64,000 bases of DNA, taken from the NCBI RefSeq assembly GCF_003790525.1, contig NZ_CP033635.1; one strand, 5' to 3'. How positions within the stretch are numbered: position 1 is the first letter of the stretch; each line of letters opens with the position of its first letter. This stretch comes from Escherichia coli. GTDB taxonomy: Bacteria > Pseudomonadota > Gammaproteobacteria > Enterobacterales > Enterobacteriaceae. The notes beneath the pieces were generated by a model. That model did no database searches, had not been told where the DNA came from, and saw only the letters and a list, made by a program, of their open reading frames with translations. Shown here one piece after another: positions 1 through 6,561 of this stretch. Made by a program: the position numbers and the translations under genes.

Positions 1-1
1 A

Positions 2-484
2 TTGATTGGTTCGCTCTCCGGCGCAGCACCGCCAGTGATCGGCTACTGTGCGGTAACCGGCGAGTTCGATAGCGGCGCAGCAATCCTGCTGGCTATCTTC
101 AGCCTGTGGCAGATGCCTCATTCTTATGCCATCGCCATTTTCCGCTTTAAGGATTATCAGGCCGCAAACATTCCGGTACTGCCGGTGGTGAAAGGCATTT
201 CGGTGGCGAAGAATCACATCACGCTGTATATCATCGCCTTTGCCGTTGCCACGCTGATGCTCTCTCTTGGCGGTTACGCTGGGTATAAATATCTGGTGGT
301 CGCCGCGGCGGTGAGCGTCTGGTGGTTAGGTATGGCCCTGCGCGGTTATAAAGTTGCTGATGATCGAATCTGGGCGCGCAAGCTGTTCGGCTTCTCTATC
401 ATCGCCATCACTGCCCTCTCGGTGATGATGTCCGTTGATTTTATGGTGCCGGACTCGCATACGCTGCTGGCTGCTGTGTGGTAA
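2..484 (+). CDS. cyoE: Protoheme IX farnesyltransferase (heme O synthase), C-terminal part; 5' end lies outside the window
   Basis: Translation is a polytopic membrane protein matching the CyoE C-terminus; stop TAA at 482-484 followed by a terminator hairpin. Confidence 0.9.
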
Positions 485-500
485 TACAACCTCTCTATAA

Positions 501-524
501 AAAAGGTGCTACGGCACCTTTTTT
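501..524 (+). terminator. Rho-independent terminator downstream of cyoE
   Basis: Seen in sequence: stem ggtgc (505-509) / gcacc (514-518), loop tacg, flanked by an A-run 5' and a T-run (519-524) 3'. Confidence 0.6.
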
Positions 525-537
525 ATTGTCTGAGATC

Positions 538-592
538 AGAGATACGGCTAATAACCGTATCTCTTGACAGAGTGAGCATATGCACATAAATT
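538..592 (+). promoter_or_regulatory. Putative sigma70 promoter with overlapping palindromic operator for the toxin-antitoxin operon
   Basis: Perfect 10-bp inverted repeat agagatacgg (538-547) / ccgtatctct (555-564) with 7-bp spacer, abutting a consensus TTGACA (564-569); 17-bp spacer; TAAATT (587-592). A second weaker acgg-N7-ccgt palindrome lies at 599-613. Confidence 0.4.
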
Positions 593-668
593 AATCACAC
601 GGTTGATAGCCGTATTATGCATGAGATCGACTCCCTACGATTTCATTCAGTTAATCAAAGAGGTCATA

Positions 669-980
669 ATGCCTGGAAAAACAGTCGCTCTACCCGATAT
701 CGATAAAACGCTGAAAAATGCGCGGGTTGAACTCAAAACCAGCCCCGACGCCAAAAACAAACTTCGTGAAGCTGCGCAAGCCGTTGGGGTAGATTTAAGC
801 GCTTTTATTTTGAGCGCAGCTATGGAACGCGCCGAAAGTGTGCTTGATAACCAACGTCGCCGTGAGCTTTCGAATCAAAGCTGGGAACTGATGAACCAAC
901 TCATCGCTGAACCTGCTCAACCGACGCTCGCCCTCAAGGCGTTAATGAAAAGGAAAAACAGCGATGGTCGACAAGCATGA
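669..980 (+). CDS. Type II antitoxin, ribbon-helix-helix DUF1778/TacA-like (partner of GNAT toxin)
   Basis: Small protein with the characteristic AFILSAAMERAE segment; ATG at 669 preceded by aagagg (658-663). The ORF track start at 603 is probably an over-extension. Overlaps the downstream toxin by 17 nt. Confidence 0.7.
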   Translation: MPGKTVALPDIDKTLKNARVELKTSPDAKNKLREAAQAVGVDLSAFILSAAMERAESVLDNQRRRELSNQSWELMNQLIAEPAQPTLALKALMKRKNSDGRQA

Positions 981-1506
981 AGAGATTACTCTGCCCATAG
1001 TCCTCTCCTGTAATTATCAGTCTGATATTACTTATCCTGGGCAAAAACAGTTTGATTGCGGTAACCCTGTTATCGATAAATTTGTACGCGCATCGCTAAA
1101 GAAAAGTGTGCGTAATAGCGACTGTGCTGCTAAAGCTCTTATTGACAGACAAAGTGGTGAACTGATTGGCATCTGTACTTTTACGGCATATTCGCTGGAA
1201 AAACAACGCGTTTCTGGCGTCCTTCAGGGTTCACAACCTTCAGAGATTGGTGTTGTCAGATTAGTCATGTTAGGGGTAGCGCGGAAATATCAAAAGCGGG
1301 GCTTTGGTCAGGACCTACTATGTGATTTTTTTGAACATGTAAAAATAATTCACCGGGCATTACCAATTAAAGGGGTTTATCTTGATGCTGACCCTGCCGC
1401 CATTAACTTTTATACTCGCCTCGGCTTTGTTCAGCTTTCAGCGAGGCCCAATGTTTTCGGTGCTGTACCGATGTTTTTAGCGATTCAGCATATTCTCGCG
1501 GCTTAG
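964..1506 (+). CDS. GNAT-family acetyltransferase toxin (TacT/AtaT/ItaT-like, tRNA-acetylating type)
   Basis: 180 aa with the QFDCG motif typical of GNAT toxins, an acetyl-CoA binding signature (QKRGFGQ) and C-terminal FYTRLGF; translationally coupled to the upstream antitoxin. Confidence 0.7.
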   Translation: MVDKHEEITLPIVLSCNYQSDITYPGQKQFDCGNPVIDKFVRASLKKSVRNSDCAAKALIDRQSGELIGICTFTAYSLEKQRVSGVLQGSQPSEIGVVRLVMLGVARKYQKRGFGQDLLCDFFEHVKIIHRALPIKGVYLDADPAAINFYTRLGFVQLSARPNVFGAVPMFLAIQHILAA

Positions 1507-1561
1507 ATTATTATCGCCTCCGGCCAGGGCTAGTTTTGCCTCAGCCGGGGACTGAGCAGCG

Positions 1562-2497
1562 TTACCACTTTTGTTCAATTGCCCCCGCTTTCAGCAACTC
1601 CACATCCTTGCCGTTAATGGTTGCCGTTGCGGCAACGATTGTGGTCCTTACAGTTGCACAAGATTTTCGCTCAAATTCCGGTTTATAAAGAATTAGAGAC
1701 GAATTACTGGTAAATGAATCAAATATGTAATCAGTAAAGCTAATATTCAGCCGGTTTAAACCGAAAGGCGCGAAGCCAACCGTTTGGTTAATCTCCTTAC
1801 CGGATGGGCTACGAATGCTGAATGTCACGCGAAGATTGGCCACTTCGCCTAATTTATTGGTGGTGGCGAAGAGGCTATCCATGCAGGAAAAACCTTTATC
1901 TAAAAAATTATCCCGCATCCCAGAACGGGTAACCGTGATCACGGGTAACGTATCGTCAACCGTTTTTCTGTCAATCATGTCTTTTCGACATGTAGCCAGA
2001 AAGTCTTCCGGACCACCATAAATGTGGACACCTTTATCAAGATATTCCTTCGCTTTCTTACAATCTACCTCAACATACTGACCATTGGCGTACATCATGC
2101 CCAACCTGGACCATGCTAAATTCACACCGTATTGCGCGGCCTGATTAAATAGTGCATACGCTTTGGCATAATCCACCCGCACCAGCTCACCGTCGTAGTA
2201 GATACTCCCCAGCGCTAACGGAGCTTCTCTATCACCGTGTTTAGCGGCTAACTCAAACCATTTAATCGCTTCCTGAACATCAGGTTTGGTATCAAAGCGA
2301 GGCTGATAATATTCCCAGCCTAACAGGCTCTGCGCGTCGACATCTCCCAATTCAGCCATTTTATGCAGTCTATTTATAACATCGGGCGCAGGTTGACCAC
2401 CGTATATGCTGTCATACAATTCATGCGCTTTCTCGCTTGCCACCACGCATGGTGAAACTATTAGCATTAAAGAAAATAATATTCTTTTAGTTAACAT
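1562..2497 (-). CDS. Secreted Sel1-repeat (TPR-like) protein with an uncharacterised C-terminal domain
   Basis: Start chosen at ATG 2497 (aaagg Shine-Dalgarno upstream), giving MLTKRILFSLMLIVSPCVVA as a signal peptide. Several Sel1-like repeats (LGW, LALGSIYYDG, LAWSRLGMMYANG) are followed by a ~140-aa region with no recognised motif. Confidence 0.65.
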   Translation of the reverse strand: MLTKRILFSLMLIVSPCVVASEKAHELYDSIYGGQPAPDVINRLHKMAELGDVDAQSLLGWEYYQPRFDTKPDVQEAIKWFELAAKHGDREAPLALGSIYYDGELVRVDYAKAYALFNQAAQYGVNLAWSRLGMMYANGQYVEVDCKKAKEYLDKGVHIYGGPEDFLATCRKDMIDRKTVDDTLPVITVTRSGMRDNFLDKGFSCMDSLFATTNKLGEVANLRVTFSIRSPSGKEINQTVGFAPFGLNRLNISFTDYIFDSFTSNSSLILYKPEFERKSCATVRTTIVAATATINGKDVELLKAGAIEQKW

Positions 2498-2903
2498 GTA
2501 TACCTTTATGTTCTCTCTGTCATATATTTCCATAATAATTAACCACCAAACATCCATTTAATGAATAAATACAGTACCATAAAGGCCCAAGTAATAAGCA
2601 CACATTTAACCTGAAACATTATCATCGATGTCACCAAATCGTTTATTTAGTGAGATAAAAATAGCATGTTCGCAAGATAAAAAATGCACATAGCAATCAA
2701 GAAATAATATTATTACTTTTGATGTAAAACTATTTAGCTTTAAGAATAATTTTTTCAACATATAGAGCATTCATTTTATGAATGCAAAATAAACATACCT
2801 GACACACAAACTATTCTCCTCTGTAATATTTTCTCATTAACACTCTGTTTACCCAACATGCGCTCCGCACTACACTATGTGGGCATTTTTTTAAGAGGTG
2901 GTA

Positions 2904-4268
2904 ATGAACGATTATAAAATGACGCCAGGTGAGCGGCGCGCGACCTGGGGTTTAGGCACCGTTTTCTCGTTGCGCATGCTGGGCATGTTCATGGTTCTGC
3001 CGGTTCTGACCACGTACGGCATGGCTCTGCAAGGTGCCAGCGAAGCATTAATCGGTATTGCCATTGGTATTTATGGTCTGACTCAGGCCGTTTTTCAGAT
3101 TCCGTTTGGCCTGCTTTCAGACCGCATTGGTCGCAAACCATTAATTGTCGGTGGGCTGGCGGTGTTTGCCGCCGGTAGCGTTATCGCTGCGCTCTCTGAC
3201 TCCATCTGGGGAATTATTCTGGGCCGGGCGCTACAAGGCTCCGGTGCGATTGCCGCTGCCGTTATGGCGCTGCTTTCCGATCTTACGCGCGAACAAAACC
3301 GCACCAAAGCGATGGCGTTTATCGGCGTGAGCTTTGGCATTACCTTTGCCATTGCGATGGTGCTTGGCCCGATCATCACTCACAAACTTGGGCTGCACGC
3401 GCTGTTCTGGATGATCGCTATTCTGGCAACAACCGGCATTGCGTTGACCATTTGGGTTGTGCCCAACAGTAGCACTCACGTACTTAATCGTGAGTCCGGA
3501 ATGGTGAAAGGCAGTTTCAGTAAAGTGCTGGCGGAACCGCGGTTGCTGAAACTCAACTTTGGCATTATGTGTCTACACATGCTTCTGATGTCTACGTTTG
3601 TTGCCCTGCCCGGACAGCTGGCTGATGCGGGGTTCCCGGCGGCTGAACACTGGAAGGTCTATCTGGCGACGATGCTAATCGCCTTTGGCTCGGTCGTGCC
3701 TTTCATTATCTACGCTGAAGTTAAGCGCAAAATGAAGCAAGTCTTTGTCTTCTGCGTCGGATTGATCGTGGTTGCGGAAATTGTGTTGTGGAACGCACAA
3801 ACGCAGTTCTGGCAACTGGTGGTCGGCGTGCAGCTTTTCTTTGTAGCGTTTAATTTGATGGAAGCCCTTCTGCCTTCACTTATCAGTAAAGAGTCGCCTG
3901 CAGGTTACAAAGGTACGGCGATGGGTGTTTACTCCACCAGCCAGTTTCTTGGCGTGGCGATTGGCGGTTCGCTGGGCGGCTGGATTGACGGCATGTTTGA
4001 CGGTCAGGGCGTATTTCTCGCTGGCGCAATGCTGGCCGCAGTGTGGCTGGCAGTCGCCAGTACCATGAAAGAACCGCCGTATGTCAGCAGCTTGCGCATT
4101 GAAATCCCGGCGGACATTGCCGCAAACGAAGCGTTAAAAGTACGTTTGCTGGAAACTGAAGGCGTCAAAGAAGTGTTGATTGCAGAAGAAGAACATTCAG
4201 CGTATGTGAAAATCGACAGCAAAGTGACGAATCGCTTTGAGGTTGAACAGGCAATTCGCCAGGCATAA
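2904..4268 (+). CDS. yajR: MFS-family inner membrane transporter YajR
   Basis: MNDYKMTPGERRATWGLG N-terminus, 12-TM MFS core plus C-terminal soluble domain; ATG at 2904 with aagagg upstream. Confidence 0.9.
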   Translation: MNDYKMTPGERRATWGLGTVFSLRMLGMFMVLPVLTTYGMALQGASEALIGIAIGIYGLTQAVFQIPFGLLSDRIGRKPLIVGGLAVFAAGSVIAALSDSIWGIILGRALQGSGAIAAAVMALLSDLTREQNRTKAMAFIGVSFGITFAIAMVLGPIITHKLGLHALFWMIAILATTGIALTIWVVPNSSTHVLNRESGMVKGSFSKVLAEPRLLKLNFGIMCLHMLLMSTFVALPGQLADAGFPAAEHWKVYLATMLIAFGSVVPFIIYAEVKRKMKQVFVFCVGLIVVAEIVLWNAQTQFWQLVVGVQLFFVAFNLMEALLPSLISKESPAGYKGTAMGVYSTSQFLGVAIGGSLGGWIDGMFDGQGVFLAGAMLAAVWLAVASTMKEPPYVSSLRIEIPADIAANEALKVRLLETEGVKEVLIAEEEHSAYVKIDSKVTNRFEVEQAIRQA

Positions 4269-4305
4269 AAGCGAGGCGAAATTGCCTGCTGCGCTACGCT
4301 TACCA

Positions 4306-4343
4306 GGCCTACAAAGTTCCTGAGTTATAAACCTTTGTAGGCC
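4306..4343. repeat. Inverted repeat between convergent yajR and yajQ (REP-like palindrome / bidirectional terminator)
   Basis: Seen in sequence: ggcctacaaag (4306-4316) and ctttgtaggcc (4333-4343) are perfect reverse complements. Confidence 0.45.
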
Positions 4344-4395
4344 AAATCAGGCGTTCATGCCGCATCTGACATGAACAAAGCGCAGGTTGTCGCGA

Positions 4396-4887
4396 TTAAT
4401 CGCGGAAGTTTTTGAACTGGAACGGCTGACCGAGATCGCCCCCACGTACCATCGCCATAACAGCCTGCAAATCATCACGAGATTTACCCGTTACACGGAT
4501 CTCATCGCCCTGAATTTGCGCCTGCACTTTCAGTTTGCTGTCTTTAATCATCTTGACGATTTTCTTCTGGGTCGCGCTCTCAATGCCCTGTTTCAGTTTC
4601 GCTTCCACAAACCAGGTTTTACCGCTATGAACGATATTTTCCGGTACATCCAGTGAACTGCCTTCAATGCCGCGCTTCAGCAGCTTGGCACGCAGAATAT
4701 CCAGCAACTGATTGACCTGGAAATCGGACTCGCTCAACACTTTGATGGTTTTGCTGGCGTCGTTCAGCTCAAATGAGGCTTCAACATTACGGAAGTCAAA
4801 ACGGGACTCCACTTCGCGGCTCGCGTTATCGACCGCGTTACGTGCTTCCTGAAGATCAACTTCAGAGACAATATCGAAAGATGGCAT
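4396..4887 (-). CDS. yajQ: Nucleotide-binding protein YajQ (UPF0234)
   Basis: [19 protein letters not shown]... matches YajQ; start at ATG 4887 rather than the track start at 5055. Confidence 0.9.
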
Positions 4888-5054
4888 CTTTTCCTCTCCC
4901 TTCATTTTTGATGCGAAGCATAATACCTGCAAAGTTAAATAACCAACAGTCCTGCACCAGGACGTATCCCTTAATTGTGCATAGTCGCAACAGCATGCAC
5001 AATTAAGAGATAGCCTTATTGAACACCCGGAGTGGTTGCGGGTGAGGAGGAACA

Positions 5055-6519
<1,465 letters not shown>

Positions 6520-6533
6520 TGTCGGATGCGGTA

Positions 6534-6561
6534 AACGTCGCATCTGACCAGATGCGACGTT
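6534..6561. repeat. Perfect 13-bp inverted repeat between convergent yajL and thiI (REP-like / bidirectional terminator)
   Basis: Seen in sequence: aacgtcgcatctg (6534-6546), 2-nt spacer, cagatgcgacgtt (6549-6561). Confidence 0.5.

Follow-up and report, generated by a model that had tools for sequence, protein, structure and literature searches.

We examined a gene in a 64,000-nucleotide stretch of Escherichia coli DNA (assembly GCF_003790525.1, contig NZ_CP033635.1; the whole of this stretch is referred to as the window), which lies between cyoE and yajR and is convergent with the toxin-antitoxin genes itaR and itaT. Its product, here called the Sel1 protein, carries a predicted signal peptide, a solenoid of Sel1 repeats, and a C-terminal domain that structure prediction resolves as an IrmA-like fibronectin type III (FNIII)/immunoglobulin-like (Ig-like) beta-sandwich. 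The features of the locus, in window coordinates, are these:

End at 484: cyoE, the upstream neighbour in the local gene order.
525-2893: variable block (itaR, itaT, Sel1 gene and AT-rich region), replaced by a 98-bp segment in K-12-type strains.
669-980, plus strand: itaR, toxin-antitoxin gene, co-inherited in E. coli and placed outside the functional unit of the Sel1 protein.
964-1506, plus strand: itaT, toxin-antitoxin gene, matching PDB 7byy.
1518-1550, strand unassigned: GC-rich hairpin in the spacer between the convergent itaT and Sel1-gene stops.
1562-2497, minus strand: coding sequence of the Sel1-repeat/IrmA-like protein, 311 amino acids including the signal peptide, with its stop codon at 1562-1564.
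2498-2893, minus strand: AT-rich upstream region, 28-32% GC, which must hold the promoter of the Sel1 gene.
2503-2506, minus strand: Shine-Dalgarno AAGG, as read from the sequence.
From 2898, plus strand: yajR, followed by yajQ and panE.

The open reading frame (ORF) delimited mechanically on the minus strand spans 1562-2557 and encodes 331 amino acids, while the RefSeq coding sequence (WP_012311701, named "tetratricopeptide repeat protein") spans 1562-2497. Of the two candidate starts, the ATG at 2497 is preferred as the better and is taken from the sequence to be the true one, because the AAGG lies 5 nt upstream of it, because homologues of other genera start there, and because the signal peptide then falls at the N-terminus. 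The ORF at 1562-2560 named in the original prediction is real, with its upper end overextended. The same prediction was correct in setting the convergent 3' ends about 55 bp apart (the itaT stop at 1506 and the Sel1 stop codon leave a 55-bp spacer) and in describing the upstream region as AT-rich (GC 0.28-0.32, versus about 0.5 in the flanks). The spacer hairpin folds at -29.2 kcal/mol (z -2.0 on the plus strand, -1.6 on the minus strand) and has no U tract, which weakly suggests that it may act as a shared terminator or RNA-stability element of itaT and the Sel1 gene. A promoter scan of the AT-rich region returned a weak sigma-70-like match at 2758-2729, not above shuffled controls. The region is 85.5% conserved with Escherichia sp. 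MOD1-EC7003; its derivation from a deleted long paralogue was considered and rejected, tblastn and blastn having found nothing. No Rfam family matched window positions 1-5000. The window belongs to the E. coli chromosome: strain 2D is 100% identical to it over positions 400-3000, and 5424 of 5426 complete E. coli genomes match this interval wholly or partially.

The protein is divided into four segments, all encoded on the minus strand:

2438-2497, residues 1-20: putative signal peptide (MLTKRILFSLMLIVSPCVVA then SEK), from its n/h/c-region pattern, hydropathy, invariant Ala20 and low model confidence.
2033-2434, residues 22-155: Sel1-like repeat solenoid of 8 helices in 4 hairpins, 3 of which match Pfam Sel1.
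1964-2002, residues 166-178: linker helix with invariant Cys170, from model secondary structure and invariant cysteines.
1565-1948, residues 184-311: modelled IrmA-like FNIII/Ig-like beta-sandwich, with invariant Cys205 and Cys280 and the motif TNKLGEVANLRV.

Inspection of the N-terminus predicts a Sec-type signal peptide with an n-region MLTKR, an h-region ILFSLMLIVSPCVV (Kyte-Doolittle hydropathy up to 2.6) and a c-region VVA|SE, cleaved between Ala20 and Ser21; Ala20 is invariant in 11 homologues, and residues 1-19 have predicted local distance difference test (pLDDT) values below 50 in the full-length model. The protein is thus presumably exported, in a mature form of about 32.6 kDa and pI 5.5. 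The full-length AlphaFold model, built on 11 homologues (pLDDT 85, predicted template modelling score (pTM) 0.82), consists of a disordered signal peptide, eight helices that make up four hairpins (residues 22-155), a linker helix (166-178) and a beta-sandwich (187-310). The eight helices, with pLDDT mostly above 90, form an alpha/alpha hairpin solenoid, and three hits to Pfam PF08238 (residues 54-89, 95-122 and 131-155; independent E-values 2.4e-6, 2.1e-3 and 4.2e-3) identify it as Sel1-like, a class recognized by several repeats of 36-44 residues that match the Sel1 hidden Markov model. Both the cleavable signal peptide and the "about 4" Sel1 repeats of the original prediction are upheld by these observations.

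Among PDB sequences the Sel1 part is matched best by EsiB/c5321 (4bwr, E 3.9e-39, residues about 42-155), with 6ok3 (E 3.6e-35) and Helicobacter HcpC (E 7e-13) and HcpB (E 3.7e-3) also detected. EsiB is a secretory-IgA-binding protein and, like the Sel1 protein, an exported E. coli Sel1-repeat protein found only in some strains; however, it consists entirely of a long Sel1 solenoid (467-residue chain) and lacks a beta-sandwich, whereas here four hairpins are joined to an IrmA-like domain. The similarity is at the level of the repeats and is not evidence of a shared ligand. HcpB and HcpC (1KLX, 1OUV) are likewise exported Sel1-repeat proteins stabilised by disulfides, but each of their repeats contains a pair of cysteines and they lack a C-terminal sandwich, whereas the mature Sel1 part here has the one cysteine, Cys146, probably paired with the linker helix. 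The only cysteines of the mature protein, at positions 146, 170, 205 and 280, are invariant in the 11-sequence full-length alignment (identity down to 37%), which fits folding in an oxidising compartment. From their positions, the disulfides are probably Cys146-Cys170, between the last Sel1 helix and the linker helix, and Cys205-Cys280, within the sandwich.

Residues from about 160 to 311 match nothing in Pfam, NCBIfam or PDB sequences; PDB profile matches of the C-terminal domain to protein A and haemocyanin were rejected as spurious, being summed over repeats, with per-domain E-values in the hundreds. To this extent the earlier view that the C-terminus cannot be assigned holds, but it gives way to structure prediction and Foldseek. 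A model of the domain alone (22-sequence alignment; pLDDT 82, pTM 0.77) adopts the FNIII-like seven-strand beta-sandwich that characterizes the IrmA-family fold, and its top Foldseek hit is IrmA (5ek5, E 1.8e-5, template modelling (TM) score 0.69; runner-up E 1.9e-3). In sequence terms the domain is rare: with it as query, phmmer gave 23 hits among 1.84 billion cluster representatives, and in full-length phmmer hits the domain is always C-terminal to Sel1 repeats. Aligned by hhalign with a 20-sequence IrmA alignment, the domain gave E 0.0019-0.0032, and the true score of 25.6 (shuffled mean 12.7, sd 2.7, max 23.4) was reached by 0 of 300 column-shuffled IrmA alignments. In this alignment Cys205 and Cys280 fall exactly on Cys46 and Cys105 of the IrmA precursor, which are Cys21 and Cys80 once the 25-residue signal peptide is removed, and the Cys21-Cys80 disulfide of IrmA has been singled out as unlike other FNIII domains (PMC4807369). 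According to the model, then, the C-terminal domain is a presumably disulfide-bonded IrmA-like FNIII/Ig-like sandwich, with E. coli IrmA as the nearest relative of known structure, and it is probably a remote homologue of that protein.

The two differ in several respects. IrmA (C1275/Aec69; PDB 5EK5; PF18673) is a 151-residue single-domain protein encoded in agn43-yeeR-irmA islands, whereas the present domain, about 15-22% identical to it, is fused behind Sel1 repeats and encoded in the cyoE-yajR slot. No counterpart of the C-terminal arm of IrmA, which forms its domain-swapped dimer (LPLSVFDPQ..PL.V.V.G), was found in the domain; the alignment ends at about residue 128 of 151 in IrmA, and the Sel1 protein extends about 9 residues beyond that point. 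A circular permutation of IrmA, in which the conserved LPVITVT would replace the swapped strand PLLITVSG, was rejected, the permuted alignment scoring 22.4 against 24.9 and pairing LPVITVT with IrmA strand A instead. A link through the irmA island of strain CFT073 was also discarded, the 378-residue SEL1-like protein of that island being pure Sel1 with no IrmA-like domain. At that locus (CFT073 PAI-serX, L020 24724-26438) the 378-residue protein is followed by a 180-residue hypothetical protein, about 10 kb upstream of irmA.

Within E. coli, the Sel1 gene and itaRT constitute one 2.3-kb block that is either present or absent, the gene occurring in 1369 and itaRT in 1368 of the 5426 complete genomes (about 25%). 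Carriers include HS, BL21, SMS-3-5, O104:H4 and O111:H11, and the block is absent from the listed K-12, O157:H7 and Nissle 1917 genomes. Comparison with the K-12-type locus by blastn places the junctions at 524 and 2894; in K-12-type strains the segment that replaces 525-2893 is unrelated to it and adjoins the end of the cyoE terminator. The borders of the block showed neither direct nor terminal repeats, and no tRNA, integrase or other mobility gene. Between two carrier lineages, synonymous divergence (dS) is 0.06-0.12 in the block versus 0.09-0.18 in flanking core genes, values close enough to argue that the block is old in those two lineages. For the Sel1 gene, comparison with another E. 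coli allele gives a ratio of nonsynonymous to synonymous divergence (dN/dS) of 0.32, and comparison with the Escherichia sp. allele one of 0.25; the corresponding values are 0.08 for itaT and about 0 for partial cyoE and yajR. This indicates purifying selection, relaxed as is typical of exported accessory proteins, and a working gene.

Variation at this locus takes further forms. In 19 E. coli genomes the Sel1 allele is only 80-90% identical to that of the window, whereas none of the 1368 carriers of itaRT falls below 95% identity for that pair. The contrast is a hint that, inside the block, the Sel1 gene has been subject to allelic replacement or diverges faster. The Escherichia sp. allele was not found at high identity in complete E. 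coli genomes, and the one E. coli locus inspected in that check had the standard arrangement. Truncated copies of 193, 130 and 106 residues (clusters P0014, P0038 and P0074) are common in Shigella sonnei and E. coli, the S. sonnei fragment having 377 member sequences; the gene is often a pseudogene, especially in Shigella. At the other border of the block, the sequence just 5' of yajR (window 2835-2897, compared with 426-523 of the K-12-type locus L017) differs by block carriage, and by blastn the two types become homologous again no more than 4 nt ahead of the yajR start codon. This region is probably the yajR promoter, and regulation of yajR may differ between carriers and non-carriers.

Beyond the species, Foldseek against AFDB50 retrieved proteins of the same architecture, Sel1 repeats followed by a sandwich, at 24-34% identity. 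They come from several genera, namely Salmonella (S. enterica, with numerous and frequently fragmentary entries), Pectobacterium, Achromobacter, Escherichia (E. fergusonii), Proteus, Morganella and Affinibrenneria. Pseudocitrobacter and Stenotrophomonas were added by scanning species-representative genomes for peptide patterns; these patterns were narrow, drawn from five sequences, and returned only four loci, so that the scan understates the distribution. A profile search of a set of 5.8 billion proteins yielded mostly fragments. Members in Pectobacterium, Affinibrenneria, Stenotrophomonas and Achromobacter extend the family beyond animal-associated bacteria. Every full-length homologue keeps both the signal peptide and the C-terminal domain; the loss of either had been anticipated in the original prediction as a finding that would count against it. 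The genomic contexts were compared across genera in about a dozen loci, a survey and not a census, of which the following bear on the relation to itaRT:

L004, enterobacterial metagenome contig: only the long form, of 484 amino acids, and no itaRT.
L006, enterobacterial metagenome contig: itaR intact, itaT cut to 80 codons.
L009, enterobacterial contig: long form, two small ORFs and short form, no itaRT.
L011, Escherichia sp. MOD1-EC7003: M20-peptidase-like ORF in the place of itaRT.
L012, Pseudocitrobacter: itaRT intact, with long and short paralogues.
L015 and L016, Salmonella: homologue adjoining cyoE, no itaRT.

The homologues at these loci keep the position convergent with cyoE, and more distant ones lie in unrelated neighbourhoods. 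Tandem paralogues, a long form followed by a short form, occur at L009 (2501-5927), L012 (4045-6477) and L006 (3494-5927); the long form, of 478-494 residues, has extra N-terminal Sel1 repeats that contain cysteines, and the short form has 308 residues. The two small ORFs between them in L009 (157 and 144 amino acids) have no Pfam hit. In L006 the orphan antitoxin gene and the truncated toxin gene, at 5972-6544, stand beside the Sel1 paralogues. In L011 the ORF between cyoE and the Sel1 gene (4812-5759) encodes a 315-residue M20-peptidase/amidohydrolase-like protein where E. coli has itaRT, which implies that the slot takes different cargo. The Salmonella homologues of L015 and L016 (1-325) are directly convergent with cyoE and mostly fragments at contig ends, and Salmonella entries in the AlphaFold database range from 98 to 617 residues, which suggests a repetitive gene that breaks short-read assemblies. 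The Salmonella orthologue is probably STM0438, judging from locus-tag numbering (cyoA is STM0443) and the position next to cyoE; STM0438 appears in the virulence-gene list of one study. Overall, we take the slot downstream of cyoE to be a hotspot for cargo, in which the Sel1 gene family is the most persistent occupant and itaRT a separate cargo.

The gene, its domain architecture, its fold similarity, the purifying selection acting on it and its distribution are established in this analysis; the export and disulfides of its product, the site of action and the class of ligand are what we infer. Our preferred interpretation, in which we place slightly better than even confidence, is that the product is a stand-alone, Sec-exported and non-enzymatic two-domain binding protein, acting as an adaptor or inhibitor in the cell envelope. 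After cleavage of the signal peptide at Ala20|Ser21, the mature protein would fold in the oxidising periplasm, which is the default destination because the signal peptide is of type I and no secretion system is associated with it: none was found near the gene, nor any virulence island, in the window or in the homologue loci examined. The four-hairpin Sel1 solenoid would offer its concave face, the usual docking site for proteins or peptides, and the linker helix, probably stapled to the last repeat by Cys146-Cys170, would hold the solenoid rigidly against the sandwich. The latter would retain the atypical intradomain disulfide of IrmA (Cys205-Cys280) and supply a second surface for binding or oligomerisation. 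A binding protein is favoured over an enzyme because both folds are interaction scaffolds and no catalytic family or motif was found. Those small periplasmic Sel1 proteins whose roles have been worked out function through binding to other proteins of the envelope. The Sel1 protein most likely binds a protein partner in the periplasm or envelope much as Pseudomonas aeruginosa PA3978 does, which acts purely by binding a periplasmic enzyme, the lytic transglycosylase MltF, which it inhibits (PMC10746161). The comparison with PA3978 is one of architecture and not of sequence: both proteins are small, with three sequence-level Sel1 repeats and a C-terminal extension, PA3978 being periplasmic, but the C-terminal region of PA3978 is helical whereas that of the Sel1 protein is a beta-sandwich. 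The long-standing home of the gene family in Enterobacteriaceae would be the slot downstream of cyoE, with itaRT as a separate cargo lying between cyoE and the gene in some lineages, and the protein would not be a third component of ItaRT.

Several points weigh against this interpretation. No conserved neighbouring gene that hints at a partner was found in the loci examined, and a literature search (locus tag, accession, Sel1 with cyoE, and IrmA with Sel1) returned no paper on the protein or on a Sel1-IrmA fusion. IrmA, which has a signal peptide only, occurs in the culture supernatant (PMC4807369), so that release of the Sel1 protein from the cell is possible. The Pfam IrmA family PF18673, carried by all true IrmA homologues examined, does not match the C-terminal domain even at E <= 10, and the hhalign probability was only 10-14%; homology to IrmA is therefore probable, not proven, and the domain falls outside the present definition of the IrmA family. 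Finally, within E. coli the Sel1 gene is never apart from itaRT, and itaRT also accompanies it in Pseudocitrobacter.

Of the alternatives, the one that survives best is that the protein is a released host-interaction factor, reaching the exterior by leakage, in vesicles or through an unlinked secretion route, and combining an EsiB-like module that binds secretory IgA with an IrmA-like module that binds cytokines. By analogy with these two proteins, which are the best PDB sequence match of the Sel1 part and the best structural match of the C-terminus, this can be entertained, and IrmA binds IL-2, IL-4 and IL-10 in vitro (PMC4807369). The gene also evolves faster than its neighbours (dN/dS 0.25-0.42 versus 0-0.08), and its probable Salmonella orthologue, identified through locus-tag numbering, is the listed virulence gene mentioned above. 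On the other hand, the gene resides in commensal and laboratory strains (HS, BL21) and is missing from the genomes listed for O157:H7, Nissle 1917 and K-12; the family has members in genera associated with plants or the environment; neither a secretion system nor a virulence island was found in the vicinity; the resemblance to EsiB is generic to Sel1 repeats, of which only four hairpins are present; and the arm that forms the swapped dimer of IrmA is absent. We regard this alternative as unlikely. Host interaction, as put forward in the original prediction, is left with analogy as its ground, and the plant-associated and environmental members of the family, together with the lack of a neighbouring secretion system, do not support it.

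A second alternative, in effect a special case of the envelope binder, casts the protein in the role of orphan immunity: as a Sel1 protein of the periplasm, it would neutralise an incoming envelope-targeting toxin of competitors, such as an effector of a type VI secretion system (T6SS). Sel1-repeat proteins encoded as tandem paralogues include the T6SS immunity proteins Sel1E of Klebsiella and PA5086-PA5088 of P. aeruginosa. Immunity proteins of this type act by binding the toxin; the T6SS effector VgrG4, for example, is neutralised by Sel1E, whose C-terminal extension is unassigned (PMC7108748). The periplasmic signal peptide, the strain-variable presence in a chromosomal hotspot, the long and short paralogues in tandem at related loci, as in immunity arrays, and the relatively fast evolution are all in keeping with such a role. 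Genes for immunity proteins of this type, however, adjoin vgrG or effector genes, whereas no T6SS effector, vgrG or PAAR gene was found within 5-7 kb in the window, L003, L004, L006, L009, L012, L014, L015, L018 or L019, and no Hcp gene near any locus examined. Moreover, PA5087 (5jkp) was not among the PDB sequence hits at E <= 0.01, and the PADLOC match, to PtuA (E 5e-4), was weak and set aside as irrelevant. An immunity function for the Sel1 protein seems to us distinctly improbable.

Functional coupling to ItaRT, for instance with the protein as its third member or with convergent transcription modulating the pair, is a still poorer account. The neighbouring acetyltransferase toxin of the GNAT family is ItaT (PDB 7byy, E 1.3e-115, over all 180 residues), and the ItaRT pair has been placed in E. 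coli HS and BL21(DE3) (PMC6125619). The near-perfect co-occurrence in E. coli, the same convergent arrangement in Pseudocitrobacter, and 3' ends that lie 55 bp apart with a hairpin in common speak for coupling. That co-occurrence, however, is strict only within E. coli and fails across taxa: homologues in the same slot stand without itaRT in Salmonella, Escherichia sp. MOD1-EC7003, L004 and L009, the toxin gene has decayed in L006, and distant homologues occupy unrelated contexts. Cloned by itself, ItaRT functions as a module of two genes (PMC6125619), and one product is presumably exported while the other is a cytoplasmic tRNA acetyltransferase. Between genera, nucleotide identity is 67-69% in the Sel1 gene versus 80-88% in the toxin-antitoxin genes. 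The context survey thus largely refutes coupling, to which we attach very little probability; since cyoE-adjacent homologues elsewhere lack itaRT or carry a decayed copy, the linkage is positional and functional dependence unlikely. The original prediction, which had assigned both to the same insertion and left open whether they were linked or simply co-acquired, was accurate as to joint inheritance within E. coli and does not extend across genera. Upstream of itaR itself, an inverted repeat (ATACGGCTAATAACCGT / ACGGTTGATAGCCGTAT, 88% complementary, window 542-615) brackets the -35 hexamer TTGACA at 564, which belongs to the best promoter-like site there; the repeat is a likely ItaR operator for autoregulation.

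The last alternative, an enzyme, is scarcely credible: several UniProt entries for the protein bear the name "zinc-dependent hydrolase", and the Helicobacter Hcp Sel1 proteins, reported to have weak beta-lactamase activity, offer a precedent for a penicillin-binding or beta-lactamase-like function, but no hydrolase, metallo-enzyme or other enzymatic family for the C-terminus emerged in Pfam, NCBIfam or PDB sequences, the only histidines are at 25, 45, 87 and 158 with no HxH-type cluster, both folds are binding scaffolds, and the single cysteine of the Sel1 part is not the Hcp-style pair in each repeat. As a speculation, the hydrolase name may stem from the M20-peptidase-like ORF found beside the gene in some Escherichia.

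A bolder extension of the envelope-binder interpretation can be stated, though we think it doubtful. The C-terminal domain could be a true ancient homologue of IrmA, and IrmA a stand-alone offshoot of a wider, hitherto undescribed enterobacterial family of IrmA-like FNIII domains, whose ancestral form was the ligand-binding head of exported, cyoE-adjacent Sel1 proteins; the native ligand would then be a protein of the bacterial envelope or derived from a competitor, and not a mammalian cytokine. If this were true, the "interleukin receptor mimicry" of IrmA would be a by-product of a generic bacterial binding fold, and the Sel1 proteins would represent a new family of periplasmic inhibitor or immunity proteins.

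What is new here is an exported Sel1-repeat protein with a previously unassigned IrmA-like domain, and no novelty at the level of mechanism is shown; a fusion of Sel1 repeats with an Ig-like domain is a plausible architecture that will not surprise the specialist. For work on ItaRT, the neighbouring gene is best viewed as a co-inherited passenger of the same variable block and not as a part of that module. This exported protein is encoded in about a quarter of the complete E. coli genomes, among them those of the laboratory B strains (BL21) and the commensal HS, and a related family occupies the same chromosomal slot in Salmonella and other Enterobacteriaceae. The IrmA-like FNIII assignment provides a structural model that can be tested and points to specific binding assays, and IrmA, a vaccine candidate of unclear physiological role, gains its first wider structural relatives.

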